Assembly: GCA_016432485.1 (NCBI GenBank) | Contig: CP066691.1 | Location: 516,709 to 580,708 of the forward strand | DNA length: 64,000 nucleotides | Direction: 5' to 3' | Source: Candidatus Niyogibacteria bacterium | Lineage (GTDB): Bacteria > Patescibacteriota > Minisyncoccia > HO2-45-28 | Part shown: piece by piece, positions 1,182 through 26,387 of the stretch | Layout: each line of letters starts with the position of its first letter | Position numbering within the stretch: the first letter of the stretch is position 1 | The notes under the pieces: model-generated | What the model was told of the DNA's origin: nothing | Seen by the model: only the letters and a program-made list of their open reading frames with translations | The model's database searches: none | Made by a program: the position numbers and the translations under genes

Positions 1182-1779
1182 TTATTACTTTTACCATATT
1201 CCGGTAAAAAATCAAAAGAGTGACGCAAAATTCATTTTTTGCGACCGCGATGTGTTTGCGGCTCGGCGAGATTGCTTTCTCCGACCGGCCGTTCTTTGCC
1301 CCAGCGAGCAAAGCCGGCCTACGTTCTCGGCGCAAAATCGCCCAGCCCTTTTGGTTAATTCCAAAAGGGCTGGGCGAACCATGCTTTTGCGCCTCCGAAA
1401 GTTCTCCGAAAGCAAACATCGCCTCGCCTTACGCAAACCATCGCGGTCTAAATATCCACTCGAAGCGCCGCAAAATTGATTTTCGTTGGCTTGCGGAGGG
1501 ACTTTGAAAATTAAAGAGTTTTGAAGTGAAAAATAGCGAGTAGGAAATTCCTGAGCGTAGCGAAGGAGGAACGATGGAGCGTTATTTTTCGCGAACAAAA
1601 CGACTATAATTTTCAAGACCCGGAGCACCGTCATAAGAAAACAATTTTGTGACGCTTTGAGGGTCTTGCGAGTTAGGAAAAAATGAATCCCGTTAGAAAG
1701 ACATTAAATAATATTTCTAAATAAAAATATGTTAAAGAAAGTTGGACAAAGGGCTTTCTAACGGGATGAATTTTGCGGC

Positions 1780-2181
1780 TTAAAGAGGTAAATCTATGGC
1801 GTAAGCGCCCGCGCCGGTCAAAACCAAAGAAAGGGCCGCGACCAAAAGCATCAAATCAAACTCATAGCCGCCGACAAAACCCTGTTTCGCTTTCACTTTC
1901 CAAATGGCAACCAGCATATCAATCGCGATAAGCAGAGCCGCAAGCTGGGTTGCAAAACCGACGATCAGCGCGATCCCGCCGAAAAATTCAACGACCCCCA
2001 CCACAAAAACCCAGAATTTAGCGGGCTTAATTCCGACGGATTCGAAAAAGCCGACGGTCTGACTGAACCCGCCGAAAAGTTTCGGATATCCGTGAGCGAC
2101 GAAAATCAAACCAACAATTAAGCGCAACAGGAGGGGCGCGAAAAAACCATAATCAAGAAATCCCGGAAATAAATTCAGCAT
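1780..2181 (-). CDS. DoxX family membrane protein
   Basis: 133 aa with four predicted TM helices and a DoxX-like pattern (GLIFVAHGYPKLFG). Confidence 0.6.
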   Translation of the reverse strand: MLNLFPGFLDYGFFAPLLLRLIVGLIFVAHGYPKLFGGFSQTVGFFESVGIKPAKFWVFVVGVVEFFGGIALIVGFATQLAALLIAIDMLVAIWKVKAKQGFVGGYEFDLMLLVAALSLVLTGAGAYAIDLPL

Positions 2182-2211
2182 AATTTAAATTAAAAAAATA
2201 AAAAACGACCT

Positions 2212-2874
2212 TTAATTTATAAATCCCTTAAGCCAGTTTATTATATCATCCATAAGTTCGGAGTGTGCGCTGAATAAATCCGTGCCGTGTCCGCCGACAT
2301 CATAAATTTTAATCTTTTTGCGGCAATTTGCTGTGTCATAAATATTTTGGGACATTTCATCTGCCGCTCCGCCGGAACGAACATCGTCCTTGGCTGCGAT
2401 AAAAAACGCGCCTTGCTCCGGTCTGATTTTTTTTGCCAACGGCAATGTTTCTATCCCTTTATAATTAAGGCCGGCCGAAAGCAATACGGCCGCCGAAACC
2501 CTATCCGATTCCGCTAAATACTGCAAAACCAGATTCGCGCCGATAGAGGCGCCGGCTAAGAAAATTTTGGAATGCTTTTCGGCGGTCATAAAACCAACGG
2601 CCGCGCGGACATCCTCAATGCTTTTTTGATGATCGGCATCAGAAAAATCGCGATAGCCGTCCGGGCCTCCTTCCGATTCTCCGTGCCCTCTTAAATCAAT
2701 GGCCAGCGCGCCGAACCCGGCCTCGTTTAGTTTTTTGGCAAACCCCGCCCAGCTCTTTTTATCCGCCGGCATCATGTGTAGCATCAAAACGCCCGGGCTT
2801 CCCGCTTCGCCCCGATAGTGGTCACCCGCGATATTTACGTCATCGGCTGTTCTTAAATTTATTCTTTCCGGCAT
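2212..2874 (-). CDS. alpha/beta hydrolase (dienelactone hydrolase-like)
   Basis: Nucleophile elbow GASIG and a C-terminal GGHG motif; 220 aa. Confidence 0.55.
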   Translation of the reverse strand: MPERINLRTADDVNIAGDHYRGEAGSPGVLMLHMMPADKKSWAGFAKKLNEAGFGALAIDLRGHGESEGGPDGYRDFSDADHQKSIEDVRAAVGFMTAEKHSKIFLAGASIGANLVLQYLAESDRVSAAVLLSAGLNYKGIETLPLAKKIRPEQGAFFIAAKDDVRSGGAADEMSQNIYDTANCRKKIKIYDVGGHGTDLFSAHSELMDDIINWLKGFIN

Positions 2875-2911
2875 TTTTTTATTTTACCAAAAAAATACTA
2901 TACTTAAAAAT

Positions 2912-3715
2912 ATGGCTAATGTAATCGGAATAATATTGGTTGTAATCCTGGTCGTCATTTTATGGTTCTCCGGCGGGGGGCTTGTTCAGCTGATCGCACC
3001 TCCGAACGGCGGTCAGCAAACCACGCAAACGGAAAACGACATTCCTCTCGTAGAAACTCCGAGCGAAACTAAAAATATAAGAATATACAGCGCGAGCTCC
3101 AGATCTGACGAACCTGAAAATGAATATATCGAAATACAGGCCGACTATTCGAATACAGTGCCGATAAATATAAGCGGATGGAAACTTCAAAATCGCGATG
3201 GAGACATTTTCATCTTACCAACCGGAGCCGGTTTACCTTATTCAGGGCGAGTCAATATAGAAGAAGCTATAAAATTAAACCCTGGCGAAAGGGCAATAAT
3301 TATAACCGGACGTAGCCCGATTGAAGTTAGTTTCAGGCCTAACGCCTGCACCGGCTATTTCAATCGTCTTTATGAATTTAACCCCCGCCTGCCGGAAAAC
3401 TGTCCGGAGCCCAACGAAGAAAAAGGCGTTGACGACCAAAACGACGCTTGTTTTTCATATCTAAAAACCGTTTCCCGATGTAAAACCCCGGTCGCATCCG
3501 ATATGCCGTCGGATGTTGATTTCGCCTGCCGCGAATTTATTGACCAAAGATTAAGCTATGCCGGGTGCGTTGAAAACCACAAAAAAGACGCGAATTTTTT
3601 TTCGGGCGAATGGAGAATATACCTAAAACAGGACAAAGCAATATGGTCTAATGTCCGCGAGAACATAAAACTTTTTGACCAAAATTCCGATTTGGTCGCG
3701 GAAACCTCCATATAG
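2912..3715 (+). CDS. membrane-anchored lamin-tail-domain (LTD) protein with cysteine-rich C-terminus
   Basis: N-terminal TM helix followed by EYIEI...NISGWKL...GDIFILP, which resembles the LTD signature. The C-terminal half has several Cys pairs. Confidence 0.4.
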   Translation: MANVIGIILVVILVVILWFSGGGLVQLIAPPNGGQQTTQTENDIPLVETPSETKNIRIYSASSRSDEPENEYIEIQADYSNTVPINISGWKLQNRDGDIFILPTGAGLPYSGRVNIEEAIKLNPGERAIIITGRSPIEVSFRPNACTGYFNRLYEFNPRLPENCPEPNEEKGVDDQNDACFSYLKTVSRCKTPVASDMPSDVDFACREFIDQRLSYAGCVENHKKDANFFSGEWRIYLKQDKAIWSNVRENIKLFDQNSDLVAETSI

Positions 3716-3719
3716 CCGG

Positions 3720-4511
3720 CTATTTTATCTCAAAAGTTATATTAACCGAACTTGTTATCTCATTCTCTCCGGTCGGAGTGGACGGAACCACCGCGCCCGA
3801 AATGTCTCCACCTTTACCAAATGCTTCTACGGCAAAAATCGGTATGGGAGAGGAAGAAAATTCGTTAAACGAAACTATTTTGCCCAAGCGAACACCGAGC
3901 GAATCTGCCAAAGTCCGCGCTTTTTTCTTCGCTTCAGCTACGGCCTTATCACGAGCTTCTTCTTTTGCTTTATCCGGATCGTCAAGCTTAAAAACCAGCG
4001 AACCAACTTCATTAACTCCAACTTTCGCAAGACCGCTCAAAAACGACCCCGTTTTATTAAGATCCCTGATTTTTAGCTCCATAGTTTGGCGCACCTGATA
4101 ACCCAGGAAAACGCGGCGGCCCTTAGGATAATCATAAACAGAATTGATTGTGTACGAAGTTGTTTTTAAATCTTTATCTTCAACTCCGGAATTCTTGAGA
4201 AACCCCACGGCATCATTGATAACGCGCGCGGAATTCTTTTGGGCGTCAGCCACGCTTGCTTCTTCGGATTCAACGGAAAAAGAAACCAGTCCGATATCCG
4301 GCCGAACAAAAACGCTCCCCTCCGCGCTTATTGAAACGGTCGGGGCGGAAAGCGAGGGGCGCGTGATGTCTTTGACTTCGGCGAAAAATTTAGCGCCGAT
4401 CCAAAAAGTCAAAACAACTGTAAAAACTATTAAAGTGTAACAACCGGCCTCGCAATGAGCCAATAGGTCACCGGACCAAAAAGGTTTTTTCCCGTTAGAC
4501 ATTTTAGTCAT
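3720..4511 (-). CDS. SIMPL/DUF541 family periplasmic protein (YggE-like)
   Basis: Signal anchor followed by a typical SIMPL domain pattern (VSFSVE...AQ...V..L...GV....L.T.SY...P.Y). Confidence 0.6.
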   Translation of the reverse strand: MTKMSNGKKPFWSGDLLAHCEAGCYTLIVFTVVLTFWIGAKFFAEVKDITRPSLSAPTVSISAEGSVFVRPDIGLVSFSVESEEASVADAQKNSARVINDAVGFLKNSGVEDKDLKTTSYTINSVYDYPKGRRVFLGYQVRQTMELKIRDLNKTGSFLSGLAKVGVNEVGSLVFKLDDPDKAKEEARDKAVAEAKKKARTLADSLGVRLGKIVSFNEFSSSPIPIFAVEAFGKGGDISGAVVPSTPTGENEITSSVNITFEIK

Positions 4512-4621
4512 TTTTTAAAATTACTTTAATTGGTAATCAAGCTTAAATAGATTATACAACAATTTCTGAAATTTATTATCCACACTCTGCGCGTTTTAAA
4601 AAAATAGAGCTCGGGGGAGCC

Positions 4622-5023
4622 CTATTCAATATGAAAGATGCCGTGGAGCTTTGTCGGCCGACCCAGAGATAAAAACAAGTTTAAAAAAGATTTCAGATCA
4701 GCCACCGCTTGTTCAAACAAAAATTGCCCCAGAGACGGTGAAGGCATTTTTATTATGGCTATCCGGCTTTCCTGATAATCAAATTCGGTTCCTTCTTCAA
4801 AACTTTGATCGTGAGTCAAAACAAAAACTCTGCTCTCCCTATAATCTTTAGCAGCCATGGTTTCAAAACGTCTGAGAAGTTTTCTATCGGACAGACGATT
4901 AAAATTATCGCCATCATGAACTATTTTCACCAGCGGACTAAAGCCTTCAAGCTCGCGTTTTATTTCCCCGGCGTTGACATCAAGGAAAATCACGATTCGG
5001 TATTGACCCGCCGGTTTCGGCAT
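4622..5023 (-). CDS. hypothetical protein
   Basis: 133-aa ORF with reasonable amino-acid composition. A terminator-like hairpin GGGCTCCCCCGAGCTC plus T-run lies downstream. No family recognised. Confidence 0.35.
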   Translation of the reverse strand: MPKPAGQYRIVIFLDVNAGEIKRELEGFSPLVKIVHDGDNFNRLSDRKLLRRFETMAAKDYRESRVFVLTHDQSFEEGTEFDYQESRIAIIKMPSPSLGQFLFEQAVADLKSFLNLFLSLGRPTKLHGIFHIE

Positions 5024-5117
5024 CGACGCTCCTTTTATGAAAAAACTCTAATTATAGAATACCTTCAAATAAAACAGCACGCAATGCGGGCTGTTTTATT
5101 TGGAGACGCAAAAACAA

Positions 5118-5327
5118 TCAATCAAACCTGTTTTCGTCGGAATGTTTTTTTATCTCGGCGACAAGCATCGCGATATGAGCATCATCGTCATCTTTCATTT
5201 TCTGCCACATTGCGGTGCAGGAATCGCATCCCTCTGCGTTTTTCAAATACTCTTTTTCATATCGCCAGACGGCGTCGTTTTTTTCCGAAAGCGCGTGAAC
5301 TAAATCGTGATTATGGTTTTTTAACAT
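5118..5327 (-). CDS. hypothetical small protein (69 aa)
   Basis: Balanced composition; the overlapping plus-strand ORF is Arg-rich. No SD sequence seen. Confidence 0.3.
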   Translation of the reverse strand: MLKNHNHDLVHALSEKNDAVWRYEKEYLKNAEGCDSCTAMWQKMKDDDDAHIAMLVAEIKKHSDENRFD

Positions 5328-5373
5328 GCCAAAAATTAAGGAATTAATTTATTAACGACTATAATTTTTGAGC

Positions 5374-5437
5374 ACCCTCACACCCATTGTTCAATGCGCG
5401 AAGCGCAAACGAAGTGTTGAATATTGGGTGTGAGGGT
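5374..5437. repeat. palindromic element A1: ~20-bp stem enclosing a short GC mini-hairpin and an A-rich spacer
   Basis: Arms CACCCTCACACCCATTGTTCAA / TTGAATATTGGGTGTGAGGGT with loop GCGCGAAGCGC-AAACGAAG. It is preceded by CGACTATAATTTT. It is related to the element at 26319-26387. Confidence 0.7.
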
Positions 5438-5448
5438 CTCGGCTCGCT

Positions 5449-5631
5449 TTAGCTCGCCTCGACCTTTGTTGAAAGTTTATTGTTTTTATTATACCCCGCC
5501 TCTTTTACCTTTTGGTAGAGCTCCCCGATTTCTTCTTTTTGTTTATCCAAATCCAGAATTCTCCGCCTTATTTTTGCTTTTTCCATGCGGATAAATTTGC
5601 GGATTGATTTCGGCAATCGTTTTCTCGGCAT
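5449..5631 (-). CDS. hypothetical small basic protein (60 aa)
   Basis: Lys/Arg-rich N-terminus and a coiled-coil-like C-terminus. Palindromic element A1 lies immediately downstream and could act as its terminator. Confidence 0.35.
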   Translation of the reverse strand: MPRKRLPKSIRKFIRMEKAKIRRRILDLDKQKEEIGELYQKVKEAGYNKNNKLSTKVEAS

Positions 5632-5720
5632 ATATAGGCCTCATAATACTTTTATCCTCTGACAACCGCAACCCCATTTCCCCAAACCCGTAAAGAAAAA
5701 ACGCACGCAATGCGCGCGCG

Positions 5721-6560
5721 TTATTTTTTAAGCCGGCCGATAACGTCTCCGAAAATCATCACGTCTTCAACGATAATAAGCGTCGGAGTAAGGCAGGCAT
5801 CCGCCCAAATGCGGCCGCGAACCGATTTCTTATCGTCAAAAAGTCCCGCGGGAACATCAATGAAAACAAGCGTGTTCAAATCAAAATCCGCTTTATCTTC
5901 AGCGCGATAATCTGATTTTTCTTTTTCAGTGGCGATATGAATCGTGAAGCGGTCAATTTTCTTGCCTTTATCGCGACCGTACTTTTTTGGAAAAGGAACG
6001 GTGTGTAAAATTATGTCGCGACCGGCTAAAAGCGGCCCGTAAACTCCATTCCTAAGATTATAAAGAGCTGAAAGCAAATCCTCATACCGGCCGATTCCTT
6101 TCGGAATTACCATATCCTCAACAAGCTCAACTGTTCCGTCTATTTCAGAACGCCTCATTATCACGCGCTTTGATTCGTCAAATACAAATCTGGTTGAACG
6201 TTTTGTCGGTGAAAAAAGGCCCCAGATAACGTCCTTTCTGAATTCTATGCTCAACAAATGATTCCCCTCCTCATCAAAACGCATTAAAGAACGATAAGTA
6301 TGTTCGGTACTGCGCAGTAATCCGACAAAACCCCTGGTCTTTGCCTCCAATACCGCCTCGTACCATCGGCTGCTGTCTTTATCGGGCCGTCTATGAATTG
6401 TGAGTACGGCATCGGCAGCACGACTAAATATCAAAAACGAAATGTCGTAAGAGAGCTCTTCATTGAGAACTTCACTATTACATTCAGATGCGGCGGTCGT
6501 CATTGCGGGAAAAACGGAAAACAACAAAAAACACAGAAAAATCCCCGCTGTTTTTATCAC
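5721..6560 (-). CDS. secreted hypothetical protein (DUF3108-like)
   Basis: N-terminal signal peptide (MIKTAGIFLCFLLFSVFPAMTTAAS). The DUF3108 resemblance is recalled and weak. Confidence 0.3.
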   Translation of the reverse strand: MIKTAGIFLCFLLFSVFPAMTTAASECNSEVLNEELSYDISFLIFSRAADAVLTIHRRPDKDSSRWYEAVLEAKTRGFVGLLRSTEHTYRSLMRFDEEGNHLLSIEFRKDVIWGLFSPTKRSTRFVFDESKRVIMRRSEIDGTVELVEDMVIPKGIGRYEDLLSALYNLRNGVYGPLLAGRDIILHTVPFPKKYGRDKGKKIDRFTIHIATEKEKSDYRAEDKADFDLNTLVFIDVPAGLFDDKKSVRGRIWADACLTPTLIIVEDVMIFGDVIGRLKK

Positions 6561-6657
6561 GCGCCCTCTCCAAAAAACGCTCAGACAATCTCAAACCATA
6601 AAAACATAATAAAACTCAAAAAGCAAACCGAGGCCGGTCTAAGTGCCTGCAAAATCG

Positions 6658-8481
6658 TCACTCCGCCTTAATCGGCAGCGTGAAATAGACAGTCGTGCCT
6701 CGCTCCTCCTCGCTTTCCACCCAAATTTTGCCGCCATGGCGTTCAATAATGCTTCGAGCGATAAAAAGACCCAGCCCCGAACCTTCGGTCTGAATACGGA
6801 TTGCGTTTCTTCCTCGAGCAAACTTGTTAAAAATGCGCCCTATGTCGTCTTTTGAAATGCCTATCCCCGTATCGCTAATCCGAATCTCCGCGAGACCGCC
6901 CTTGCCGGATATATATATGTCCACCTTGCCGTTTTCACGATTATATTGAACCGCGTTATCAAGGATATTTGAAAAAGCAAGATTGAATTTTTTGCGGTCA
7001 ATCATCAACGGCTGCAGTTTTTCTTTTGGCATATGGACCATCAATATAATGCCGCGCTCTTTGGCTAAAGCCATAAATTTATCCGCCGTTTCTTTTATGA
7101 TTCCGACCAAATCCTCTTTTTGAAAAACGAAGCCAAGCTGTCCCTCTTCTATGCGCGAAACATCCAGCAAGTCATTAACAAGATTAATCATGCGGTCGTT
7201 AGTCTGATTGGTCCGACTGACCAATTCTTTTTGCTCTGTTTGGAGTTCGCCGGCATCGCCGTCAAGAAGCGCGCGAAAAGCCCATTTTATCGCCGAGAGC
7301 GGTGTACGAAGCTGATGGGCCGCGATGGTGACGAAGTCTGACTTTTCTCGGCTCAAAAGCCGCTCGTGTTCGCGGACTTCCTTTATGCGAACGCGCATCC
7401 GATTAAATTCGTCGGCCAAGTCCTCCAATTCGTCGTTAGTTTTTACCTGAATGGCGTAATCCAGATTATCCAGCCCGATTTGCTCGGCCCCCTTCTGAAG
7501 TTCTTCTATGGGTTTAATTACGCGGCGAGCAAGAAGAATCGCGGCCCCCATTGCCACAGCCAATATGCCGGCAAGAATAATCAAAGAGAAAAAAGTAATT
7601 TCCCTGACCGCGGCCAAGGCGATGGCGGCCGGCAATTCGGCAACGATAAACCAGCGGGTTTTCTCCGCGCTTCCGGAGGCACCCTCAAAAGGAATAACAA
7701 TTCTGGCGCCGGACCCCAAGACCTCTTCTTGAATTTCGTTTTCATAAATATCCGCGAATAACGGTTCGCCGTTATCTTCTATCAAAGATTTTACCACCGG
7801 AATCGCGGAAAAATTTTTTTCGGAAAGTACTTGCGAAATGTCGGGGTGGGCTACGACAATTCCGTTTTTATCCACGATGTAAGCCCGGCCCTCCTCTTTA
7901 GCCACGGAAAGGTCTTTTACCACCGCCTGCATAATTCTGGAGTCAATTTGAGCGAAAACCGAGCCGAAAAATTTTCCGCGAGAATCAAAAATCGCCCGGC
8001 CTATCAGAAAAAAGGGCCTGTTTTTTTCCCAGAAAATATCGCTGATAAACCGACCCTCGTTCTTAGTCGCTATAAATTCTTCGTTTGCAGACCTGTTAAT
8101 AAAGTCCTCCGGGACTACGGTTACGAATTTGCTGACGCGGGCGGTTTCCATGCCATTTTGGTTGACAATTGACACTTCCACGAAACTATCATTGGTAAAT
8201 AGGGTCCTTTCAATGAAAGTTTTCTGAAGATCAGGCTGTTCAATGAGCGAAGGAAAAATGCTTTCCATGGCGGCCAGTTGCCCGAATTGATGGCTGATAA
8301 ATTCGGAAATTTCAAGACTCGCGAGAGCGGCGACATGTTCCGCGTGTCTCACGGCGTTCCTTTTTTGGATGTCCTGCAATTTGACCGTAGCTACGGTCAT
8401 GGCAAAAAAGAAGGGCAGGGAAGCTATGCCGATTAAAACCAGAATAAACTTTAGGCGCAATCTTTTTCTTAAAAATGGCAC
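6658..8481 (-). CDS. sensor histidine kinase with extracellular Cache-like domain, HAMP, HisKA and HATPase_c
   Basis: Two TM helices flank a ~250-aa extracellular domain. H-box IAAHQLRTPLSAI, N-box NLLDNAVQY, G-boxes DTGIGI and GSGLGL are present. Confidence 0.85.
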   Translation of the reverse strand: MPFLRKRLRLKFILVLIGIASLPFFFAMTVATVKLQDIQKRNAVRHAEHVAALASLEISEFISHQFGQLAAMESIFPSLIEQPDLQKTFIERTLFTNDSFVEVSIVNQNGMETARVSKFVTVVPEDFINRSANEEFIATKNEGRFISDIFWEKNRPFFLIGRAIFDSRGKFFGSVFAQIDSRIMQAVVKDLSVAKEEGRAYIVDKNGIVVAHPDISQVLSEKNFSAIPVVKSLIEDNGEPLFADIYENEIQEEVLGSGARIVIPFEGASGSAEKTRWFIVAELPAAIALAAVREITFFSLIILAGILAVAMGAAILLARRVIKPIEELQKGAEQIGLDNLDYAIQVKTNDELEDLADEFNRMRVRIKEVREHERLLSREKSDFVTIAAHQLRTPLSAIKWAFRALLDGDAGELQTEQKELVSRTNQTNDRMINLVNDLLDVSRIEEGQLGFVFQKEDLVGIIKETADKFMALAKERGIILMVHMPKEKLQPLMIDRKKFNLAFSNILDNAVQYNRENGKVDIYISGKGGLAEIRISDTGIGISKDDIGRIFNKFARGRNAIRIQTEGSGLGLFIARSIIERHGGKIWVESEEERGTTVYFTLPIKAE

Positions 8482-8503
8482 AGAGTTGTTTTTTTTATCC
8501 GCT

Positions 8504-9553
8504 TTATTTGCCTATTTTTTCATCGGCTATGGAAAGCATTGATTCCGGAAATGTCAGGCCGTCTTTATCGGCGCGGCCAATATGCAAAATTAGGGAATTT
8601 TTTTGGGTGAATTCTATGGGTATATCGGTTGGTTTTTCGCCCTTGAATATTTTGTCTACCAGTCGGGCCATTTGTTTTCCGGCCGTAAAATAATCGCTTG
8701 AATAAGCAAAATGGCCGCCGGTCGGCAAATCTTCAATTGGAGCGACGTGAGGCACCCCCAAACGATTCGCCAATTCGGCTTCACTTGTTTCCTGCGCGTC
8801 AAAAAAATGTCCGGGAATATGGTAAATGGCGTCTATATCTCCGGCTTTAATTCCGGAAGCGATCTTACGCCAGGCAGATTCAGCGCCGGGAGGAGCGGTA
8901 GTTGTTTTATACTCCACCAATTGAAATCCTAATTTCGGCGCCAGCGCTTTCAACTGGGCGTACATTTCTTCCCCGACATTGGGAATCATAAATCCGTCGC
9001 TAAAGACCCCTATTTTTTTGCCGGCCGGATTTATTTTTTTTATAAATTCCAACTGTTTTCCTATGACATCCGTAAGTTGAGAAGCAATGCCCGTTAAATT
9101 ATTCCCCGAGGATTGGAATGATTGAACGATGCCGTAAGACACCGGGTCATGGAATTGAGCGAGAAATACGACCGGAATGTCGCTTTTCAGCTCCTGCATA
9201 ACGAGCCGAATGTCTTTAGCCGTAATTTCAGACGGAATAAATAATAAATCCACGCCTTCGGCAATCATTTTCCGGACCGCCGCTTGGGCGTCAGCTTGAG
9301 CCGTAGGCCCCAAAGTGAATAACTCTTCTTTATAACTAATCCGTTTATAACCCAAATCTTTTAATCCTCGTTTGACGCCCTCCACCGTTTGAAGCTGTTG
9401 CCTGATGAGAATGGAGCCGATTGTTTTTGGTTCTTTGAGTACTGCCGATTCGGCCGGACCGGAAATACGTATGTCCCTGAATATTCTGAAGAAGCCGAAG
9501 CCGACGACTACAGCAAGAATTACAATTAATAGAATTATTGTTTTTTTAGACAT
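8504..9553 (-). CDS. ABC-transporter-type substrate-binding protein (ABC_sub_bind family), paralog 1
   Basis: N-terminal TM anchor and conserved blocks EYKTTTAPPGAESAW, IKAGDIDAIYHI, EDLPTGGHF. Clearly paralogous to the adjacent gene. Confidence 0.6.
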   Translation of the reverse strand: MSKKTIILLIVILAVVVGFGFFRIFRDIRISGPAESAVLKEPKTIGSILIRQQLQTVEGVKRGLKDLGYKRISYKEELFTLGPTAQADAQAAVRKMIAEGVDLLFIPSEITAKDIRLVMQELKSDIPVVFLAQFHDPVSYGIVQSFQSSGNNLTGIASQLTDVIGKQLEFIKKINPAGKKIGVFSDGFMIPNVGEEMYAQLKALAPKLGFQLVEYKTTTAPPGAESAWRKIASGIKAGDIDAIYHIPGHFFDAQETSEAELANRLGVPHVAPIEDLPTGGHFAYSSDYFTAGKQMARLVDKIFKGEKPTDIPIEFTQKNSLILHIGRADKDGLTFPESMLSIADEKIGK

Positions 9554-9556
9554 GTA

Positions 9557-10609
9557 TTACTTTTCTATTTTAACATTCGCTATTCGCGCCATTGAATCCG
9601 GGAACACGATTCCGTCATCAATCGCCCGTTTTGTATAGAGCACCAGAATATTTTTCTCCTCAAAATCAATCGGGATATCCGAGGGCTTTGCGCCGCCGAA
9701 TATTTTATCGGCTATCCTGGATGCCTGCTCGCCCGAAGCGGTAAGATCTCCGGCGTAACCGAAATGACCTCCGGTTGGCAAGTCCTCCAAAGGAGCCACC
9801 ATCGGAATTCTTAATCTGGAGGCCAGTTCGGTTTCCGCGGTCTCCTGCGCCTCAAAAAAATGACCGGCTATATGATATATGGCGTCAATATCTCCGGCTT
9901 TAATTTTGCTGGCAGTTTGATACCAGGCAGATTCAGCTCCCGGAGGAGCGGCGGTTGTTTTATATTCCACGATATCAAAGCCCTGTTTTTTGCCCTGGTT
10001 TTTTACTTCCTCCAAAAACTTATCTCCAACGTCCGGAACCACAAAACCGCTCCCGAAAACGCCGATTTTTTTAATGGCCGGATTTATCGCTCTTAAAAAT
10101 TCCAGATGTTTTTGCACTACCTCAACCAAATTTATTGAAATTCCGGTCGCGTTATTGCCGGAAGATTTAAAAGATTTTATAACGCCGTACGCCACCGGGT
10201 CATGGAATCTGGATGAAAATACTATCGGGATATCGCTTCCGGTCTCTTTCTCTATTTCCAATGCCGCCAGGGCTATATTTTCTTGAGTCGCGAATATCAA
10301 ATCCACTTTGCCTTGAATCAATTCTCTGGCGGAGTTTTCTATGTCAAGCGGCAAAGTCGGAGAAGAAGTAAAAACCCCTTTGTCCTCAAAAGAAACTTCC
10401 GCGTATCCCATATTCTTAAAACCCTCTTTAAAACCCTGAACGGCTTCTATGTGCTGTCTTGGAAAAATTATCCCTATTCTTTTCGGTTCTTTTAAGTGGG
10501 ACCTATCGGGGGCAAAAAATGGAAAGCCCCTTAATATCTGATAAAGGCCGAAGGCCACCGCCGCGACGATAATCGCCAGAATCAGGATGTTTAATGGTTT
10601 TTTAAACAT
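9557..10609 (-). CDS. ABC-transporter-type substrate-binding protein (ABC_sub_bind family), paralog 2
   Basis: Same architecture and motifs as 8504-9553; the two genes form a tandem pair. Confidence 0.6.
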   Translation of the reverse strand: MFKKPLNILILAIIVAAVAFGLYQILRGFPFFAPDRSHLKEPKRIGIIFPRQHIEAVQGFKEGFKNMGYAEVSFEDKGVFTSSPTLPLDIENSARELIQGKVDLIFATQENIALAALEIEKETGSDIPIVFSSRFHDPVAYGVIKSFKSSGNNATGISINLVEVVQKHLEFLRAINPAIKKIGVFGSGFVVPDVGDKFLEEVKNQGKKQGFDIVEYKTTAAPPGAESAWYQTASKIKAGDIDAIYHIAGHFFEAQETAETELASRLRIPMVAPLEDLPTGGHFGYAGDLTASGEQASRIADKIFGGAKPSDIPIDFEEKNILVLYTKRAIDDGIVFPDSMARIANVKIEK

Positions 10610-19409: not shown

Positions 19410-19440
19410 TAAACCAATTTTATCGAAAATTTAGGCAAAT

Positions 19441-19487
19441 ATAAAATATCCCGCCAAACAGAGCTTACGAGCTCTGTCTAGCGGGAC
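19441..19487 (-). terminator. intrinsic terminator of the lipoprotein gene
   Basis: Hairpin CCCGCC...CAGAGC-TTAC-GAGCTCTG...GCGGG followed on the minus strand by ATATTTTAT. Confidence 0.55.
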
Positions 19488-19491
19488 GTTT

Positions 19492-20019
19492 TCACTTTCC
19501 TGACAAAAGCCGAGACGCGATATGGGCCGCGACCCTGAAAGAACTTAACCAAGCGCCGGCGTAAATCCCGCTATCGCCCCTAAACTCATGTTCTCCAACC
19601 GAAGCGGCAATCACGCGTCCGGCTTGATCAATCACCCGGACAACAATCATAGCCCTGCCTTTATAAAGATACAAGTTCCCAAAGACATTGCTTTTATCCC
19701 GTATCCGCGAGGCGCAAACCAGGGCCTCAAAATCAGGTAGCGCCCAACGCTTGCGCGGCCAACGATCGCGCACGCCCTCAACCACTACGATGGCACCCCG
19801 ATGACGCAAACCCCTCTCAATTATGGGCGCGATAATCGCGACATCCTCGCCGGTTCCGCGGGCATAACATTGCCCAACATTGTAACGAATCAAAACAGTA
19901 CTATTGCGGATTTGAGGAACGGGCCTCCACCTCGGAAGTTTGATGGCCTTTGGACTGGAAGCGCACCCGAAGATAAAAATCGGCATAAACGCACAGAAAA
20001 TCCACAGGATTCTCTTCAC
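19492..20019 (-). CDS. putative lipoprotein (GC-rich, Arg-rich)
   Basis: Signal peptide with lipobox FGCASS; GTG start with SD AAAGGAGG; local GC about 52% against about 45% background. Confidence 0.5.
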   Translation of the reverse strand: MKRILWIFCAFMPIFIFGCASSPKAIKLPRWRPVPQIRNSTVLIRYNVGQCYARGTGEDVAIIAPIIERGLRHRGAIVVVEGVRDRWPRKRWALPDFEALVCASRIRDKSNVFGNLYLYKGRAMIVVRVIDQAGRVIAASVGEHEFRGDSGIYAGAWLSSFRVAAHIASRLLSGK

Positions 20020-20059
20020 TTTTCCGCCTCCTTTAAGAGTTTTTCAACAGGTAATTAAC

Positions 20060-20088
20060 TGCCTATTGGATTATATCACTATTTGTTT
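20060..20088 (-). promoter_or_regulatory. near-consensus sigma70 promoter TTGACT-N17-TATAAT for the lipoprotein gene
   Basis: The minus strand reads TTGACTtgggaaacaaatagtgaTATAAT about 40 nt upstream of the SD. Confidence 0.6.
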
Positions 20089-20159
20089 CCCAAGTCAAAT
20101 AATATATTTACCTAAAACACAAACAATAAAGATTCGAATCTTGCTTCTTTGCGCCGGAA

Positions 20160-21287
20160 ATGATAAGAAATAATAAAGTGACCCAAAATCAAGAAACGTT
20201 AAAAAATCTTATAGACTCAAGCGTCAAAATTTTGCTCGCAAGCGAACCTTCGGCCGACGAAGCAACGAGGCTGGCTATGTTTGCCTTAAAAAATGTGCTG
20301 GAGAGCCTGGGTAAAGAAGTTTTTTTACATCCCGCTCCGGGTGAAAAATTCAAAGAAAAATTCAAAGAAATTCTCCCCGAAAGGTTTGAGAGAGAAATCC
20401 CGCAGAAAATAAAAATAAAAATCCCAAAATCCTCCATAATTGATGAGCTGCGCTACGAAGAAGAAGAAAATTTCTTAAGCGTGGTCGTCTTGCCGAAAGG
20501 AAAAATTGAGCCGGCAACTATTCAAATTGAAAAATCGCCCTATGACATGGACGCGGCTTTTTGCTTTTTTGCGCCACAAGACTCCTCTCTCGGCGAAGAC
20601 TATGAATCCGGATGGCGTAAAATCGCGGCCCCGACGGCAAAACCGCCCGGAGAAAAAATAGTCTACCTCGTTAACGGCGAAAAAACTCTTGCCGGAAAAA
20701 TAAGTGACATTCACGAAGCGATGGACGGCTCTCAGTCTTTGCCCCCACTAACGGCAACTCTTTTGATGGCTTCGCTTGTTTATGAAACCGAGAATTTCCA
20801 AGGACGATGCGGACCGGAAGCATTCAAACTCGCAAATTTATTGCTCGAACTCGGCGCCGATAAAAAGACCTTAGACAAAATATTGCTCTTGGAAAAAGAC
20901 CCTCGATTTGTCCAGATTGTGGGCCGGGCGCTGGCGCGAACGGCGTCTGAAACAGAACTTAAAACCAGCTGGACATACCTCACCAAAAAAGACTTTGAAA
21001 AGACCGAATTGGAATCAACGAAAGAAAATCTGCTTTTTATTTTACGAAAGATTCGGGCCGGCATTATGCCTCACCGGTCCTCAATAATATGTTACGAAAG
21101 CGGCGGCGGAATAGAATCGCTCATTTTTAACGAGGACAGAAAAATTCTAAACGTCATGGCCGCGGTTTTGGGAGCGGAGCCCGAAAGCCTGTATTTTTTT
21201 ACTTCCGGTTTTAAAAATTTTTCGGAAGCCGAAACAAAAATACGCCAATTGTTGAAAGATAACATTTCGGATAGAATGAAAGAATAG
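20160..21287 (+). CDS. DHH/DHHA1-like protein with degenerate catalytic motifs (NrnA-like)
   Basis: Overall NrnA-like layout, but DHH is replaced (DMDAAF) and GGGH is GGGIE. Contains a short 12-nt tandem repeat (AAATTCAAAGAA) encoding EKFKEKFKE. Confidence 0.35.
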   Translation: MIRNNKVTQNQETLKNLIDSSVKILLASEPSADEATRLAMFALKNVLESLGKEVFLHPAPGEKFKEKFKEILPERFEREIPQKIKIKIPKSSIIDELRYEEEENFLSVVVLPKGKIEPATIQIEKSPYDMDAAFCFFAPQDSSLGEDYESGWRKIAAPTAKPPGEKIVYLVNGEKTLAGKISDIHEAMDGSQSLPPLTATLLMASLVYETENFQGRCGPEAFKLANLLLELGADKKTLDKILLLEKDPRFVQIVGRALARTASETELKTSWTYLTKKDFEKTELESTKENLLFILRKIRAGIMPHRSSIICYESGGGIESLIFNEDRKILNVMAAVLGAEPESLYFFTSGFKNFSEAETKIRQLLKDNISDRMKE

Positions 21288-21288
21288 A

Positions 21289-22953
21289 ATGGCAAAAAAT
21301 AACGATATTGAAACGAAACTGGAAGAATTCAGGCAAAGAGAAGCCGAGGATTTGGCGCGGCTCCTTTCTGAAAAACACGGCCTGCCCTACTCGGATTTAT
21401 CCCGAATGACTATTAATCTGGATGCCCTTAAGATTGTTCCCGAAAATGAAGCCAGGGAAGCTAAAATGGCCGTGTTCCAAAAAGTGGCTAAACGTCTGCA
21501 GGTTGCGGCGTTAAATCCGGACCTCATCAAAACCAAAGATATTTTAAAAAGGCTCGCCGATGAAGGTTATACGGTTGAGCTTTTTTTTGTTTCGGAGGCA
21601 AGTCTTAGGCGGGCGTGGTCAAGATATGCCGAAATTCCGGCTTTTGAAGAAATAGAAACGGGCTTGATAGATATATCGCCCCAGCGCCTTGAAGAATTTC
21701 AAAAAGAAGTCAAAAATATTCAAAGCTTGCAAAAACTCATTGAGCCGCATCTTACGGCTCAAAAAATAAGAAAAATATCGGAGACCGTTGAAGTGATTCT
21801 GGCGGGAGCCATGGCTCTGGATGCGTCAGATATCCACTTGGAACCGAGAGAAAAAGAAGCGCGGATACGCTTTCGCCTTGACGGCGTACTAAACGACATT
21901 TCTTCTTTCGGCATAGCATCTTACGGCCCGATTATTTCAAGGCTGAAGCTTTTGTCTGAAATGAAACTGAATATCCACGACCGCGCCCAAGACGGCAGAT
22001 TTACCATAAGAACCAAAAACGCGGACATAGAAGTGCGGTCCTCAATCCTACCCGGGCCCTACGGCGAAACCGCGGTTATGCGAATACTCAACCCGAAAAC
22101 AATATCAATAACTTTGGAGGATTTGGGTATGCATCCGGAATTTCTGAAAGTGATGGAAGAAGAACTCAAAAGGCCCAATGGGATGATTCTGACCACCGGC
22201 CCCACCGGATCCGGAAAAACCACGACCCTCTACGCTTTTATTAAAAATACGGTTCGGCCGGGCATAAATATAGTAACCATAGAAGACCCAATAGAATATC
22301 ACATCACCGGAATCAACCAGACGCAAGTTGACGCGAAAAAAGGATACGATTTCGCAAACGGCCTTCGCTCCATATTGAGACAGGATCCGGACGTAATTCT
22401 GGTCGGAGAAATTCGCGACCTGGAAACGGCTCAAATTGCCATGCACGCTTCGCTGACCGGCCATCTGGTATTTTCAACTCTGCATACCAATAACGCCGCG
22501 GGCACCATACCGCGCCTGATAGACCTCAAAGCCGACCCGACAATCATTGCTCCGGCAATAAACGTAACCATGGCTCAGCGTTTGACGCGAAAATTGTGCC
22601 CAGAATGCCGGAAAAAAGACAAACCAACGGCCGAAGAAGAAAAAATCATTAAAAAATCCCTACAAGAAACTCCGGCAAAATATAAAAAAACCGCGCCGAA
22701 AAACTTAGTTTTGTGGCGCGCCGTCGGATGTGAAAAATGCAATAATATCGGCTACAAAGGACGAATCGGCATATTTGAAGCTTTTTTGGTAGATGATGAG
22801 GTTGAAAAAATGATTTTAAAAAAACCGGCCGAGGCCGATCTGAAAGCGGCTATGAAAAAACAAGATATGATGACGATGTTTAATGACGGGGTGTTAAAAG
22901 TTTTATCCGGCGCCACATCACTTGAAGAATTAAAGCGGGTGGCATCCGAATAA
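21289..22953 (+). CDS. PilB/GspE-family secretion ATPase (type IV pilus / type II secretion)
   Basis: Walker A TGPTGSGKTT, Asp box, His box, a C-terminal CxxC...CxxC zinc motif and an N-terminal GSPII_E_N-like domain; 554 aa. Confidence 0.85.
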   Translation: MAKNNDIETKLEEFRQREAEDLARLLSEKHGLPYSDLSRMTINLDALKIVPENEAREAKMAVFQKVAKRLQVAALNPDLIKTKDILKRLADEGYTVELFFVSEASLRRAWSRYAEIPAFEEIETGLIDISPQRLEEFQKEVKNIQSLQKLIEPHLTAQKIRKISETVEVILAGAMALDASDIHLEPREKEARIRFRLDGVLNDISSFGIASYGPIISRLKLLSEMKLNIHDRAQDGRFTIRTKNADIEVRSSILPGPYGETAVMRILNPKTISITLEDLGMHPEFLKVMEEELKRPNGMILTTGPTGSGKTTTLYAFIKNTVRPGINIVTIEDPIEYHITGINQTQVDAKKGYDFANGLRSILRQDPDVILVGEIRDLETAQIAMHASLTGHLVFSTLHTNNAAGTIPRLIDLKADPTIIAPAINVTMAQRLTRKLCPECRKKDKPTAEEEKIIKKSLQETPAKYKKTAPKNLVLWRAVGCEKCNNIGYKGRIGIFEAFLVDDEVEKMILKKPAEADLKAAMKKQDMMTMFNDGVLKVLSGATSLEELKRVASE

Positions 22954-22963
22954 CATGCCTCAA

Positions 22964-23102
22964 GGTCTCTAGGCAGGAGCTCGCAGTATGGGGAACCACA
23001 AGCCAAGGATTTGCCGATGAAACGGCCAAGCTTTGACCTCAACAAGGAGGCGGCCAAGCCGCCCTAGCGGTCAAAACCAAAATATAAAGTTGCCTAGAGA
23101 CC
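22964..23102. other. structured GC-rich intergenic element closed by a 12-bp inverted repeat (candidate small RNA)
   Basis: GGTCTCTAGGCA ... TGCCTAGAGACC enclose ~115 nt containing GCCAAG repeats and the hairpin GGCGG-CCAAG-CCGCC. No convincing ORF. Confidence 0.3.
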
Positions 23103-23154
23103 CTGGGGCACGTGAAAATAGCTTTCGGAAGAAGTATAGCAAATAAAATATGAT

Positions 23155-24177
23155 TTGTCAAGTATAAAAATGATAAACCCGTCTTTCAATAATAAAAATG
23201 AAGATTCCGGTTTGGAACAAACCCTGCGTCCCGCAAGGTGGGATGATTATGTCGGACAAGAGCCGATTAAAAAAAATCTGAAAATACTGATGCAGGCGGC
23301 GCACGAAAGAAACGAGGCGCTGGAACATATACTGCTTCACGGCCCGGCTGGCCTTGGCAAAACCAGTCTGGCTCATTTGATAGCCAAAGAAATGTCCAGC
23401 CAGATAAAAATCACTTCGGGCCCGGCTATAGAAAGAGTCGGAGACCTTGCTTCCATCCTGACCAATTTGTCCGACGGCGATGTTTTGTTTATTGACGAGG
23501 TACACAGGCTGAATAAAACAATAGAAGAAGTGCTTTATCCGGCAATGGAATCGGGGAATCTTGACATTATTATCGGCAAAGGACCCGGAGCGCGTTCAAT
23601 CCAGATAGACCTCCCGCCTTTTACTCTCATCGCCGCAACCACGCGCATAGCTCTTCTTTCAAATCCTTTGCGCTCGCGATTTTCCGGAGGAACTTTTAAA
23701 TTGGATTATTATTCAACGGATGAACTAATTAAAATAATAAAGCGTTCTGCCGAAATACTGAAAACCGAGGTCGCCGCCGGAGCCGCCGAACTAATCGCTT
23801 TACGTTCCCGTTTTACTCCGCGCATAGCCAACCGCCTCTTAAAACGCGCCAGGGATTACGCCCAAGTGCATAAAATTTCAACAATAAACGAAAACGCCGT
23901 AACCAAAACGCTTGAACTTTTAGGCATTGACCACAAAGGCCTGGAAGAAACCGATCGGCAAATCCTAAAAGTTTTAATAAATAAATTCAGCGGAGGCCCG
24001 GTGGGTCTCAATACTTTAGCCGCGGCAACCTCCGAAGACCCGGCTACGGTTGAAGAAGTCTACGAGCCGTTTTTACTGCGCCTCGGCTTTATTGAGCGCA
24101 CTCCGCGAGGCCGCATGGCCACTCCGAGCGCCTACAAACATCTGGACATTAAAGCGCCTCAGGCAAAATTGATTTAA
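23155..24177 (+). CDS. ruvB: Holliday junction DNA helicase RuvB
   Basis: Walker A GPAGLGKTSLA, Walker B LFIDEVHRL, sensor motifs and a C-terminal winged helix. Confidence 0.93.
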   Translation: MSSIKMINPSFNNKNEDSGLEQTLRPARWDDYVGQEPIKKNLKILMQAAHERNEALEHILLHGPAGLGKTSLAHLIAKEMSSQIKITSGPAIERVGDLASILTNLSDGDVLFIDEVHRLNKTIEEVLYPAMESGNLDIIIGKGPGARSIQIDLPPFTLIAATTRIALLSNPLRSRFSGGTFKLDYYSTDELIKIIKRSAEILKTEVAAGAAELIALRSRFTPRIANRLLKRARDYAQVHKISTINENAVTKTLELLGIDHKGLEETDRQILKVLINKFSGGPVGLNTLAAATSEDPATVEEVYEPFLLRLGFIERTPRGRMATPSAYKHLDIKAPQAKLI

Positions 24178-24191
24178 AGTATAATAAAACA

Positions 24192-24422
24192 GTGCAAGGA
24201 AATATAAAAATAATCATAATTCTGGGACATTTTGCTTTTTTGCTGGTATATGCCACGCTCGTGGCCGCGCTCCTTTGGCATTACCAAAAATACAGTTTGC
24301 CCCGCGACCGGGCGCGCTGGATTATCGGGTTATTTTTAACAATCGCTTCTATCTTGGCCGTCATTTCCACGATTTTAATATTTTCCGTGCCGTGGGAAAA
24401 AATCGCGAATTTAAAAGTTTAA
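24192..24422 (+). CDS. small membrane protein (2 TM)
   Basis: 76 aa with two hydrophobic helices; reads as an operon with the next gene. Confidence 0.4.
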   Translation: MQGNIKIIIILGHFAFLLVYATLVAALLWHYQKYSLPRDRARWIIGLFLTIASILAVISTILIFSVPWEKIANLKV

Positions 24423-24437
24423 ATAAAATCTGAAATC

Positions 24438-24962
24438 GTGCTTGAACTGCAAAAAGAAGAAAAAGTCATAATCGCCTTTCACCGCCATTGGATAGTGGTG
24501 GCAAATAAACTGACTTTTGCCGCTCTCGCTTTAATCCCGCCGATTGTCGTGCTTATTCTTATGCCGACTTTTCAAATCGGGGCGGAATTAAATCTTTTGA
24601 TCATCTACGCCGTGATCGTGTATCTTTTGGCGTCTCTTATGGCCGCCTTCGTCATTTGGTTTGATTATTATCTTGATGTCTGGATCGTAACCGATAGGAG
24701 AATAATTGATGTGGAACAAATAGGCATGTTTCGCCGTCAAACCTCGGAATTTATGCTTTCCCGCGTTCAAGACGTCACTGTGGAAATTCCCGGCTTTATC
24801 GCCACCTTGCTCCATTACGGAAACATTCGTGTGCAAACGGCGGGGGAACAAGGTTTTGAAGCCAGCGATATCCCCAACGCGGATAAAATCAAAGACATAA
24901 TTCTTGAGGAGGCCAGAAAGACCAACGGACATAGACCCGAGGAGACAACCAATCACTTATGA
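24438..24962 (+). CDS. YdbT-like membrane protein with bacterial PH domain (bPH_2/DUF304)
   Basis: Two N-terminal TM helices and a C-terminal domain, VWIVTDRRIIDVEQ...VQTAGE, which I take to be a bacterial PH fold. Confidence 0.5.
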   Translation: MLELQKEEKVIIAFHRHWIVVANKLTFAALALIPPIVVLILMPTFQIGAELNLLIIYAVIVYLLASLMAAFVIWFDYYLDVWIVTDRRIIDVEQIGMFRRQTSEFMLSRVQDVTVEIPGFIATLLHYGNIRVQTAGEQGFEASDIPNADKIKDIILEEARKTNGHRPEETTNHL

Positions 24963-25498
24963 GCGGACATTCCAAGTGGTCTCAAATCAAACATAAAAAG
25001 GCTCTGACTGACGCCAGAAAAAGTAAAGAGTTCGCGAAACTGGCGAAACAAATAACCGTTGCCGCGCGCGAAAAGGGGCCTGATCCGGCGTCAAACCCGT
25101 CTTTAAGGGCGGCCGTGGAAAAAGCCCGCTCTTTCAACATGCCCTCCGACAACATTGAGCGGGCGATAAAGCGCGCGACTTCGAAAGACGAAAACGCTCT
25201 GGAGGAAGTTTTGTTTGAGGCCTACGGGCCCGGGGGCAGCGCGATATTGATTGCCGGAATTACAGACAATAAAAATCGCACGACGCAAGAAATAAAGCAT
25301 CTTCTTTCCGAAAACGGCGCGAAGCTCGCCTCTCCCGGATCCGCAAAATTTTTATTCCAAAAAACCGAAGACGGCTGGCAGCCGATCGCGAACATAACAG
25401 TTGACGAAAAAACAAAAGAGGCGCTCTCAAAAATTTTTGAAGCGCTTGATGAAAACGACGACATAAACGACATATATACCAACGCAGATTTTACTTAA
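24959..25498 (+). CDS. yebC: YebC/PmpR family DNA-binding regulator (shortened)
   Basis: MSGHSKWSQIKHKKA... plus ANPSLRAAVEKA and EAYGPGGSAILI are canonical YebC blocks. 179 aa, so the C-terminal domain is shortened. Confidence 0.8.
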   Translation: MSGHSKWSQIKHKKALTDARKSKEFAKLAKQITVAAREKGPDPASNPSLRAAVEKARSFNMPSDNIERAIKRATSKDENALEEVLFEAYGPGGSAILIAGITDNKNRTTQEIKHLLSENGAKLASPGSAKFLFQKTEDGWQPIANITVDEKTKEALSKIFEALDENDDINDIYTNADFT

Positions 25499-25522
25499 TC
25501 AATGTCCTTATTTGAATTAAAA

Positions 25523-25552
25523 CAGCCCACGACAGCAAAGCCGTCGTGGGCC
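25523..25552 (-). terminator. intrinsic terminator of the GC-rich inserted gene
   Basis: GCCCACGAC-GGCTTTGCT-GTCGTGGGC followed by TGTTTTAATT on the minus strand. Confidence 0.7.
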
Positions 25553-25581
25553 GAGGGTCAAGGATTCAATAATCCAAGTCC

Positions 25582-26151
25582 CTACTTGCGGGAAACGACG
25601 CGAGAGCCGGCACTCCACCCGAACGGGTGCTTGACCGAGCGGGCCGCAACGTCCCAGTAGCGATCGACGGAGAACCAGCACGCGCGCACAGCCCAGAGCT
25701 TTCCTTTCTTGTCCCTGATGTAGGCGATGCACCACCCGCCATTTTGGTTCTTGAGGAAATTCAGAAAGTGAACAAGGTGGATTTCTTCCTTGTCTCCCAG
25801 CTCTTTCCGGATAGGCTGGTCCACGGACGGTTTCTTGAGCTTGTGGATGTTCAGCTCCGTAGCCGAGACGTTCTCCTCGACCTTACCCTTGAACAGGCGA
25901 TCGAAGTTGGAGCCCGTCCATCCGACATTGGCCTTTTTCAGGGCCTCGTCGTCGCAGACAAACCTTTCCGCGCCGTCCACTCGAACCGTGCCGACGAACT
26001 TGAGGAGGTCGAATTCCGGACTGAGACCGCGAAGGTACTCCTGGAGCCCCTGCGGGTCGTCAATCCATCTCTGCATGGCCTCCTTGTTCATTTCCGGCAG
26101 GTTTTCTGCGATTCGAGAAATGAACTTTCCTGTCTGTTTCTGTCTGTCCAT
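25582..26151 (-). CDS. hypothetical protein in a GC-rich (~56%) islet between yebC and ruvC
   Basis: Start placed at the internal Met with a perfect SD AAAGGAGGAAAAATCGCC-ATG. Lys-rich N-terminus, no recognised family. The overlapping plus-strand ORFs look like antisense artefacts of the high GC. Confidence 0.5.
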   Translation of the reverse strand: MDRQKQTGKFISRIAENLPEMNKEAMQRWIDDPQGLQEYLRGLSPEFDLLKFVGTVRVDGAERFVCDDEALKKANVGWTGSNFDRLFKGKVEENVSATELNIHKLKKPSVDQPIRKELGDKEEIHLVHFLNFLKNQNGGWCIAYIRDKKGKLWAVRACWFSVDRYWDVAARSVKHPFGWSAGSRVVSRK

Positions 26152-26290
26152 GGCGATTTTTCCTCCTTTGGGTTTTCGCCATTTTCGTTTGCCAGAGGGC
26201 CGTCCCAATGACAGCCATAGCCAGAAAATCTTAATTTTTAAGGCCTTTTGGCTATGGCCGCCGGTAAAAAATTTTAAGAACTATGCGTGC

Positions 26291-26319
26291 ATTATACACC
26301 CACCCTATTCGTTTGTCCC
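26291..26319 (-). promoter_or_regulatory. sigma70-like promoter GGGACA-N17-TATAAT for the GC-rich gene
   Basis: The minus strand reads GGGACAaacgaatagggtgggtgTATAAT, directly abutting palindromic element A2. Confidence 0.45.
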
Positions 26320-26387
26320 CCCCCACACCTATTGAGCAATAGCGCCTGAAGGCGCGAAAAAACAAAATTGCTCAATAGGTGTGGGGG
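26319..26387. repeat. palindromic element A2 (perfect 20-bp stem, GC mini-hairpin and A-rich spacer in the loop)
   Basis: CCCCCACACCTATTGAGCAAT / ATTGCTCAATAGGTGTGGGGG with loop AGCGCCTGAAGGCGC-GAAAAAACAAA. The arm sequence is related to A1 (CACACCYATTG...CAAT). Confidence 0.75.

Follow-up and report, generated by a model that had tools for sequence, protein, structure and literature searches.

What are the two palindromes, A1 and A2, that lie in a 64-kb window of the 836,981-bp contig CP066691.1, part of a Candidatus Niyogibacteria metagenome-assembled genome, and how did they come to be there? An initial annotation of the window (the whole stretch of 64,000 nucleotides analysed here) had described both, together with a third hairpin, as a family of structured elements that follow a TATAAT box, and had proposed that they are small structured RNAs, unusual terminators or insulators, or boundary elements of inserted cassettes. 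We find that A1 and A2 are genuine, related hairpins of one family, and our preferred interpretation is that they are probably copies of a small non-coding palindromic mobile element of Parcubacteria, non-autonomous and resembling a MITE (a miniature transposable element with inverted repeats). Loci from other genomes and metagenomes are referred to below by L numbers.

A1 (5374–5437) is 64 bp long and A2 (26318–26386) 69 bp, neither being assigned to a strand. The arms of A1, at 5374–5394 and 5417–5437, are 21 nt long and 90% complementary (the mismatches being one T-T and one G-T), and those of A2 (C7ACACC...GGTGTG4), at 26320–26340 and 26367–26387, are also 21 nt and 100% complementary. Both hairpins are located where the initial annotation placed them and are related in the manner it described, since they share the sequence CACACC[C/T]ATTG, an A-rich spacer, and an inner GC mini-hairpin beside the 5' arm (GCGCGAAGCGC and GCGCCTGAAGGCGC in A1 and A2). 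Folding compared with dinucleotide shuffles gave z = -7.9 for A1 and -9.7 for A2, with 0 of 200 shuffles equal to either, and both strands of each element fold more stably than shuffles (z = -7.2 to -9.7). The stem base that characterises the family is CCCCACACCTA / TAGGTGTGGGG, about 11 bp, with a distal stem that covaries; these termini are found in A2, in three hairpins of locus L009 (h1, h2 and h3) and in L011, and the A1 version is CCCTCACACCCA. Inside the conserved termini the arms run on as a perfect palindrome that is specific to each copy, and they enclose one or two mini-hairpins. Elements range in size from 64 to 92 bp, the hairpin filling each one and leaving no space for a gene, and no open reading frame (ORF) is present within A1 or A2.

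The history of A2 can be reconstructed from an empty site. The element lies in a divergent intergenic region between ruvC and a GC-rich gene on the minus strand encoding 189 amino acids (aa), and abuts a promoter, as had been noted initially, which reads GGGACA-17-TATAAT on the minus strand (26319 to 26291). The L042/L043 loci, whose RuvC is 68% identical, contain the same promoter and leader module and the same ruvC-proximal sequence without A2, and when the window is aligned with them the only sizeable difference is a clean gap of 72 nt that coincides exactly with A2. The window reads ...GTTT GTC (C7ACACC...GGTGTG4) GTC AACC... and the relative ...GTTTT GTC AAG..., such that the single GTC of the empty site is present as a direct duplication on the left (26315–26317) and right (26387–26389) of A2. 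The promoter and 5' leader hairpin (26214–26258) of the 189-aa gene are also ~90% identical to L027/L028, with homology ending exactly at the A2 edge, and the -35 box is TTGACA in both L027/L028 and L042/L043 and GGGACA in the window. Because the gap is clean and GTC is duplicated relative to the empty site, the alignment shows A2 to be a discrete insertion of ~69 bp, with a 3-bp duplication, inside the -35 hexamer of an older promoter; and because the two outgroups keep an intact TTGACA, it is an insertion in the lineage of the window and not a deletion in the relative. Most simply, the TATAAT next to A2 belongs to a promoter that predates the insertion and drives the 189-aa gene. A2 is identical on all population contigs of the organism, and no within-population polymorphism was seen.

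Using the exact hairpin pattern CACACCYATTG-N25-55-CAATRGGTGTG, we searched collections of genomes and metagenomes and obtained matches at 7 genome loci and 10 metagenome loci. As about four matches are expected by chance in the genome collection by our own estimate, most of these are probably unrelated palindromes. Two matches, however, are in genomes of Candidatus Nealsonbacteria, another Parcubacteria lineage, and at one of these loci (L009) the same stem base recurs in two further hairpins that the pattern had not picked out (CCCCACACCTATTC... and CCCCACACCTAATA...), giving three or four copies within 1.2 kb surrounding a type IV pilin gene. One copy at L009 (4634–4706), which abuts hairpin h2, is decayed and chimeric, combining a 5' arm that matches the one in h3 exactly (CCCCACACCTAATAAGGAC) with a degenerate 3' arm of the h2 type and an interior that holds the reverse complement of the h3 mini-hairpin. 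The loops of the inner hairpins of h1 and h2 are flipped relative to each other (GTGAAAC and GTTTCAC), and the clustered copies together suggest recombination and decay among themselves. The family hairpin at L011 (5478–5576) directly abuts the 5' end of a tRNA-Ala gene, overlapping the first bases of the tRNA, and just upstream of the hairpin there is a repeat of the first 7–8 nt of this gene (GGGGCCTG), as if insertion of the element had taken place at the 5' boundary of the tRNA. An interior sequence, GCAATGCGC, is common to L019, A1 and A2.

An alignment of eight copies shows that the 20-pair outer stem is 93.8% paired, with 11 of the 20 pairs changed on both sides, and that 0 of 500 shuffles are as good; shifting every 3' partner by 1–3 columns reduces pairing to 41–48%. 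The conserved portion is the outer 11 bp on each side, whereas the inner arms vary between copies and are complementary within each copy. Of the 160 pair cells, G-T pairs occupy only 5, a scarcity more in keeping with a DNA palindrome than with an old RNA structure. From the eight family members we built a covariance model, R1, which, with filters off, matches the window only at A1 (56 bits) and A2 (67.9 bits); the L009 copies score 56–70 bits. No copy was found with R1 in about 110 kb of relatives' loci.

Each of the three L009 hairpins h1, h2 and h3 is flanked by a 3-bp direct repeat that abuts the maximal palindrome (TTT, AAA and TTG, respectively). The background rate of abutting 3-bp repeats is about 2.5%, and none is seen at any of 13 other hairpins in the window (0/13).

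Discrete insertion, short duplications, conserved termini, patchy presence in relatives, clustering with decay and a lack of coding capacity are what we observe for the element. In the MITE-like interpretation, a transposase supplied in trans would bind the terminal repeats of about 11 bp and integrate the element by a 3-bp staggered cut; given the target duplication, this enzyme would probably belong to the DDE type. Effects on the host would be by-products, including a change in promoter strength (TTGACA to GGGACA) and the placement of a stable hairpin in neighbouring transcripts. Similar behaviour is familiar from Correia/CREE of Neisseria, RUP of Streptococcus pneumoniae and ERIC/IRU of the enterobacteria, which are likewise small, non-coding, intergenic, hairpin-folding MITEs with terminal inverted repeats, a short target-site duplication and presence or absence between relatives, and which are able to create or damage promoters and to put hairpins in transcripts. 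The element described here differs from these in its termini (CCCCACACCTA), in being shorter (64–92 bp), in its host, a member of the Candidate Phyla Radiation (CPR), in a palindrome that spans nearly the whole element with copy-specific arms, in a duplication of 3 bp as opposed to the TA of Correia and RUP, and in having no known cognate insertion sequence and an apparently low copy number.

Several observations weigh against this interpretation. No transposase, and no full-length element with matching termini, was found in the window or in the loci examined, and there are just two family copies in the 64 kb of the window. The palindrome extends well beyond the conserved termini, which is typical of hairpin-recognised elements and less so of MITEs defined by terminal inverted repeats alone. 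A1 has no flanking direct repeat, which is consistent with A1 being an older or decayed copy, and the mismatches in its arms agree with this. The direct repeats at L011, L019 and L015 are 4–8, 5 and 2–6 bp and not 3 bp; their boundaries are blurred by C/G runs. The contig that carries L015 is phage-like (phrog_1745), and this locus may have matched by chance. A 3-bp repeat at an indel could equally be left by a microhomology-mediated deletion, although at A2 the outgroups argue otherwise. Three hairpin patterns gave 0 matches against viral contigs, BLAST against phages and plasmids gave nothing meaningful, and no neighbouring protein is common to the hairpin loci; full-text searches of the literature yielded no description of such CPR repeats.

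The extent of the palindrome raises the alternative of a single-stranded DNA element recognised as a hairpin and moved by a Y1/HUH transposase and not by a DDE enzyme, in the manner of repetitive extragenic palindromes (REPs) and REPINs with their REP-associated tyrosine transposases (RAYTs), or of the palindrome-associated transposable elements (PATEs) derived from IS200/IS605. Consistent with this, the whole element is a near-perfect palindrome whose arms covary past the conserved termini, the inner mini-hairpin is GCGAAGC, a very stable DNA mini-hairpin, and a close relative has a RAYT-like Y1 transposase (NF047646, 39.7 bits; PF01797). The elements resemble REPs and REPINs in being extragenic palindromes, in occurring both clustered and as hairpin doublets, and in being selfish and non-autonomous. 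However, there is no Y1 gene in the window and no RAYT is associated with the element, and the hairpins on either side of the RAYT-like gene of the relative, the only Y1 gene seen, are its own and unrelated (TTACAGGATATC/GATGTCTTGTAA). The GTAG/CGTC tag of REPs is absent, with no common tetranucleotide in the flanks of the eight copies, and the element is not high-copy in the sequence seen. Moreover, Y1 transposition leaves no target duplication, and the 3-bp duplications observed speak against it. We consider a Y1/HUH mechanism unlikely on balance. Separately, the RAYT-like Y1 gene of the relative (L037), which scores below the cut-off for NF047646 and matches PF01797, has related small palindromes on both sides (2518–2554 and 3236–3264), and this arrangement is possibly a REP-RAYT unit in a CPR genome.

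A functional structured RNA was also considered, either as a stabiliser of the 5' untranslated region, a processing hairpin, or a small RNA (sRNA) driven by the adjacent TATAAT box. In its favour, the folds are very stable, the stem changes are compensatory, and hairpins are positioned 42–46 nt upstream of start codons (A2 before ruvC, A1 in the minus orientation before a 69-aa gene, and L009 h1 and h2), with h2 additionally lying downstream of a consensus TTGACA-17-TATAAT promoter. A TATAAT precedes A1 by 8 nt and the third hairpin by 3 nt. Nonetheless, G-U pairs are nearly absent, both strands fold, and the interiors are variable; the orientation relative to the downstream gene is opposite in A1 and A2; A2 has no credible plus-strand promoter; and the hairpin is missing from orthologous sites in relatives and is accompanied by no terminator. 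In an Rfam scan of the window, a check that the initial annotation had proposed, only a tRNA-Arg passes the gathering threshold, and permissive Rfam scans of three loci give sub-threshold miRNA hairpin models only. With neither an Rfam match nor a consistent promoter and terminator, we regard the proposal of a small structured RNA as distinctly unlikely.

The supposed position behind a TATAAT box does not hold as a property of the family, as at A2 the TATAAT lies on the opposite strand, directed away from the hairpin, and in other genomes the position of family copies with respect to a -10 box is not fixed. At the other locus, A1 lies between two minus-strand genes, a 60-aa ORF with its stop at 5449 and a 69-aa gene starting at 5327 whose product is conserved in many CPR genomes. 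The 13-mer CGACTATAATTTT that had been reported to precede both A1 and the third hairpin has exact occurrences at 1601 and 5356 alone, and the shared match is in fact longer, the 15-mer AACGACTATAATTTT at 1599–1613 and 5354–5368. Read on the minus strand this is AAAATTATAGTCGTT, which holds a -10-like TATAGT, and in the second copy the TATAGT precedes the ATG of the 69-aa gene by 31 nt. In relatives, the homologues of this gene are preceded by a TATAAT-type -10 box and have different neighbouring genes, and no hairpin is present upstream of them in L029–L035. Most simply, then, the TATAAT/TATAGT 15-mer beside A1 would be the promoter of the 69-aa gene and no part of the element. An sRNA made from the TATAAT box was consequently rejected as a family feature, as this box is on the other strand at A2 and the 15-mer reads as the TATAGT -10 box of a gene whose homologues have TATAAT and are hairpin-free.

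The proximity to promoters admits a further reading, in which the hairpin is a mobile, promoter-targeting regulatory module of CPR genomes that re-tunes or insulates divergent promoters at hot spots where accessory genes are swapped (such as those for variable proteins of diversity-generating retroelements, DGRs), or is moved by a new hairpin-recognising enzyme that makes 3-bp duplications. The basis for this is the location of A2 in a -35 box and of A1 9 nt from a -10 box, and we hold the idea to be distinctly doubtful.

The positions of A1 and A2 also bear on the proposal of a palindrome that binds a protein or acts as an insulator, or of a recombination site marking cassette exchange. In a relative whose RuvC is 75% identical (L036–L039), the gene order is the same and yebC and ruvC overlap, so that 25499–26438 of the window is lineage-specific DNA; this block, inserted between yebC and ruvC at a synteny breakpoint, comprises a terminator hairpin, the 189-aa gene, its leader hairpin (26214–26258), the promoter, A2 and a new ruvC start. 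A1 in turn has the conserved 69-aa gene on one side and a lineage-specific block of ABC-binding-protein and kinase genes on the other, and A1 and A2 are both directly upstream of a leftward promoter. The suggestion that the hairpins mark cassette boundaries is therefore correct insofar as both are at junctions of lineage-specific DNA, but A2 is not a cassette end: because the module in the relative lies next to ruvC without A2, A2 is a separate insertion of ~70 bp inside the junction. L042 thus has a cassette-type junction with no hairpin, the half-sites are 40–70 bp apart with variable spacing, and no recombinase or integrase was found among the neighbouring proteins scanned. There is a likeness to integron attC sites, which are imperfect palindromes of ~60–140 bp with a variable centre beside variable genes; however, the stem base CCCCACACCTA/TAGGTGTGGGG has no attC R-box motifs and no RYYYAAC/GTTRRRY core sites, there is no integrase or cassette array, and the element is at the 5' (promoter) side of the gene and inserts alone with a duplication. 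A binding or exchange site of this kind is very unlikely. That the hairpins are unusual intrinsic terminators is more improbable still, to the point of being barely credible: A1 starts 11 nt after the stop of the 60-aa ORF and a small terminator-like site (GGGGGTCAACCCC plus a T-run) overlaps the end of A2, but no U-tract follows either large hairpin on either strand, a terminator scan flags neither of them and reports only a small separate hairpin (26383–26396), A2 is between divergent genes, and ordinary hairpin plus T-run terminators are used elsewhere in the genome.

The third hairpin, described initially as a weaker copy at 1604–1668, is a real fold (1614–1670, z = -5.1 on the plus strand and weak on the minus), yet R1, which recovers A1, A2 and the Nealsonbacteria copies, gives no match there even at E<=10 with filters off, and as judged by the model it is not a member of the family. 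It shares with the A1 locus only flank and edge sequence, namely the 15-mer flank, GGTGCTC and an edge 9-mer, AGACCCTCA, the latter having two matches in the window as against 0.12 expected. These shared segments make it probable that the hairpin is an A1-type segment, paralogous or decayed, whose interior differs. One possibility is that a decayed copy of the A1 type was duplicated along with the promoter, another that the flank carrying the promoter is part of a longer A1-type unit.

The minus-strand TATAGT of the third hairpin is upstream of a strongly structured, ORF-free region of 390 nt. This segment (1215–1600, minus strand) has no credible ORF over its ~390 nt, a 140-aa ORF within it being an R-rich junk translation with no Pfam match, and its minus-strand RNA folds with a minimum free energy of -159.7 (z = -7.4) and a long closing stem. 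It includes a perfect 17-bp hairpin (1338–1377) and a terminator-like hairpin with a T-run at 1243–1224, has no Rfam match, and may be an unannotated structured non-coding RNA driven by the minus-strand TATAGT at 1609–1604. On the other side, at 1680–1774 and directly downstream of a DoxX gene, is a large hairpin with 26-nt arms that are 85% complementary and T-runs on both sides, which is probably a bidirectional terminator.

Other features of the two loci were noted. At the ruvC locus, the start of ruvC has been replaced by the yebC-ruvC insertion (26430–26440 in the window, compared with 1634–1680 in L036): in the L036 relative the start is inside yebC (MKYTPTLKLKSSKILGID...), and in the window the protein begins MGRKILGID... 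from a new ATG 42 nt after A2. Near A1, a region of ~5 kb (5449–10609) with two ABC substrate-binding proteins, a Cache/HAMP histidine kinase, a 279-aa secreted protein and the 60-aa ORF is inserted between the Mur ligase gene and the 69-aa gene, with A1 at the junction of the block; in the L029/L030 relatives the 69-aa gene comes after the Mur ligase gene, either immediately or with a TrpR-like gene intervening. A separate sequence, AAGGTCGNNGATTAG, is found ~45 nt upstream of the start codons of unrelated genes in two CPR lineages, at 4803–4817 in L009 (the Nealsonbacteria pilin gene) and at 1961–1975 in L030 and in L031–L035 (homologues of the 69-aa gene), and is absent from the window.

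The 189-aa gene (25582–26151, minus strand) is GC-rich and encodes a homologue of DGR variable (target) proteins. Its homologues adjoin an RVT_1 reverse transcriptase and bAvd, with a 117-nt pair of variable and template repeats. Because no reverse transcriptase, Avd or template repeat is present in the window, the gene is an orphan or remote DGR target. The cassette is located between yebC and ruvC in the window and between holA and rpsT in L027. A link between the DGR and A2 was examined and rejected, as homologous cassettes lack the hairpin and the association is positional only. The module of promoter and 5' leader hairpin (26195–26300 in the window, minus strand; 262–345 in L027; 335–415 in L042) is ~90% identical at the DNA level among genomes in which RuvC is only 68% identical or the downstream protein only 57% identical, and in L042 it precedes an unrelated gene. 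On the transcribed strand its stem includes G-U pairs, there is one compensatory change of U-A to C-G, and from these alignments the module looks like a conserved, portable leader RNA element. The window also contains a second, unrelated palindromic family, a 15-mer (CCGAACCGAGTTCGG), itself a small palindrome, that occurs six times (0.2 expected) as three inverted doublets (48936–48981, 49128–49180 and 55030–55067). Two of these are inside a predicted 287-aa ORF, and the architecture of the doublets is REPIN-like.

CPR bacteria and Parcubacteria have tiny genomes, which are generally portrayed as containing little mobile DNA. The element constitutes a new member of an already known type, the small palindromic mobile element, and is notable mainly for its CPR host and for the promoter that it interrupts. 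One false lead is removed, in that the hairpins are unlikely to be sRNA genes or terminators. The conserved 11-bp termini, together with R1, provide a marker for finding the transposase and for tracing variation at the strain level. If A1, A2 and their Nealsonbacteria counterparts are indeed MITE-like, as we think probable, then a hairpin-forming family common to Niyogibacteria and Nealsonbacteria would indicate that small non-autonomous elements remodel regulation even in streamlined genomes, and the -35 box split by A2 would be an instance of such an element caught in the act.

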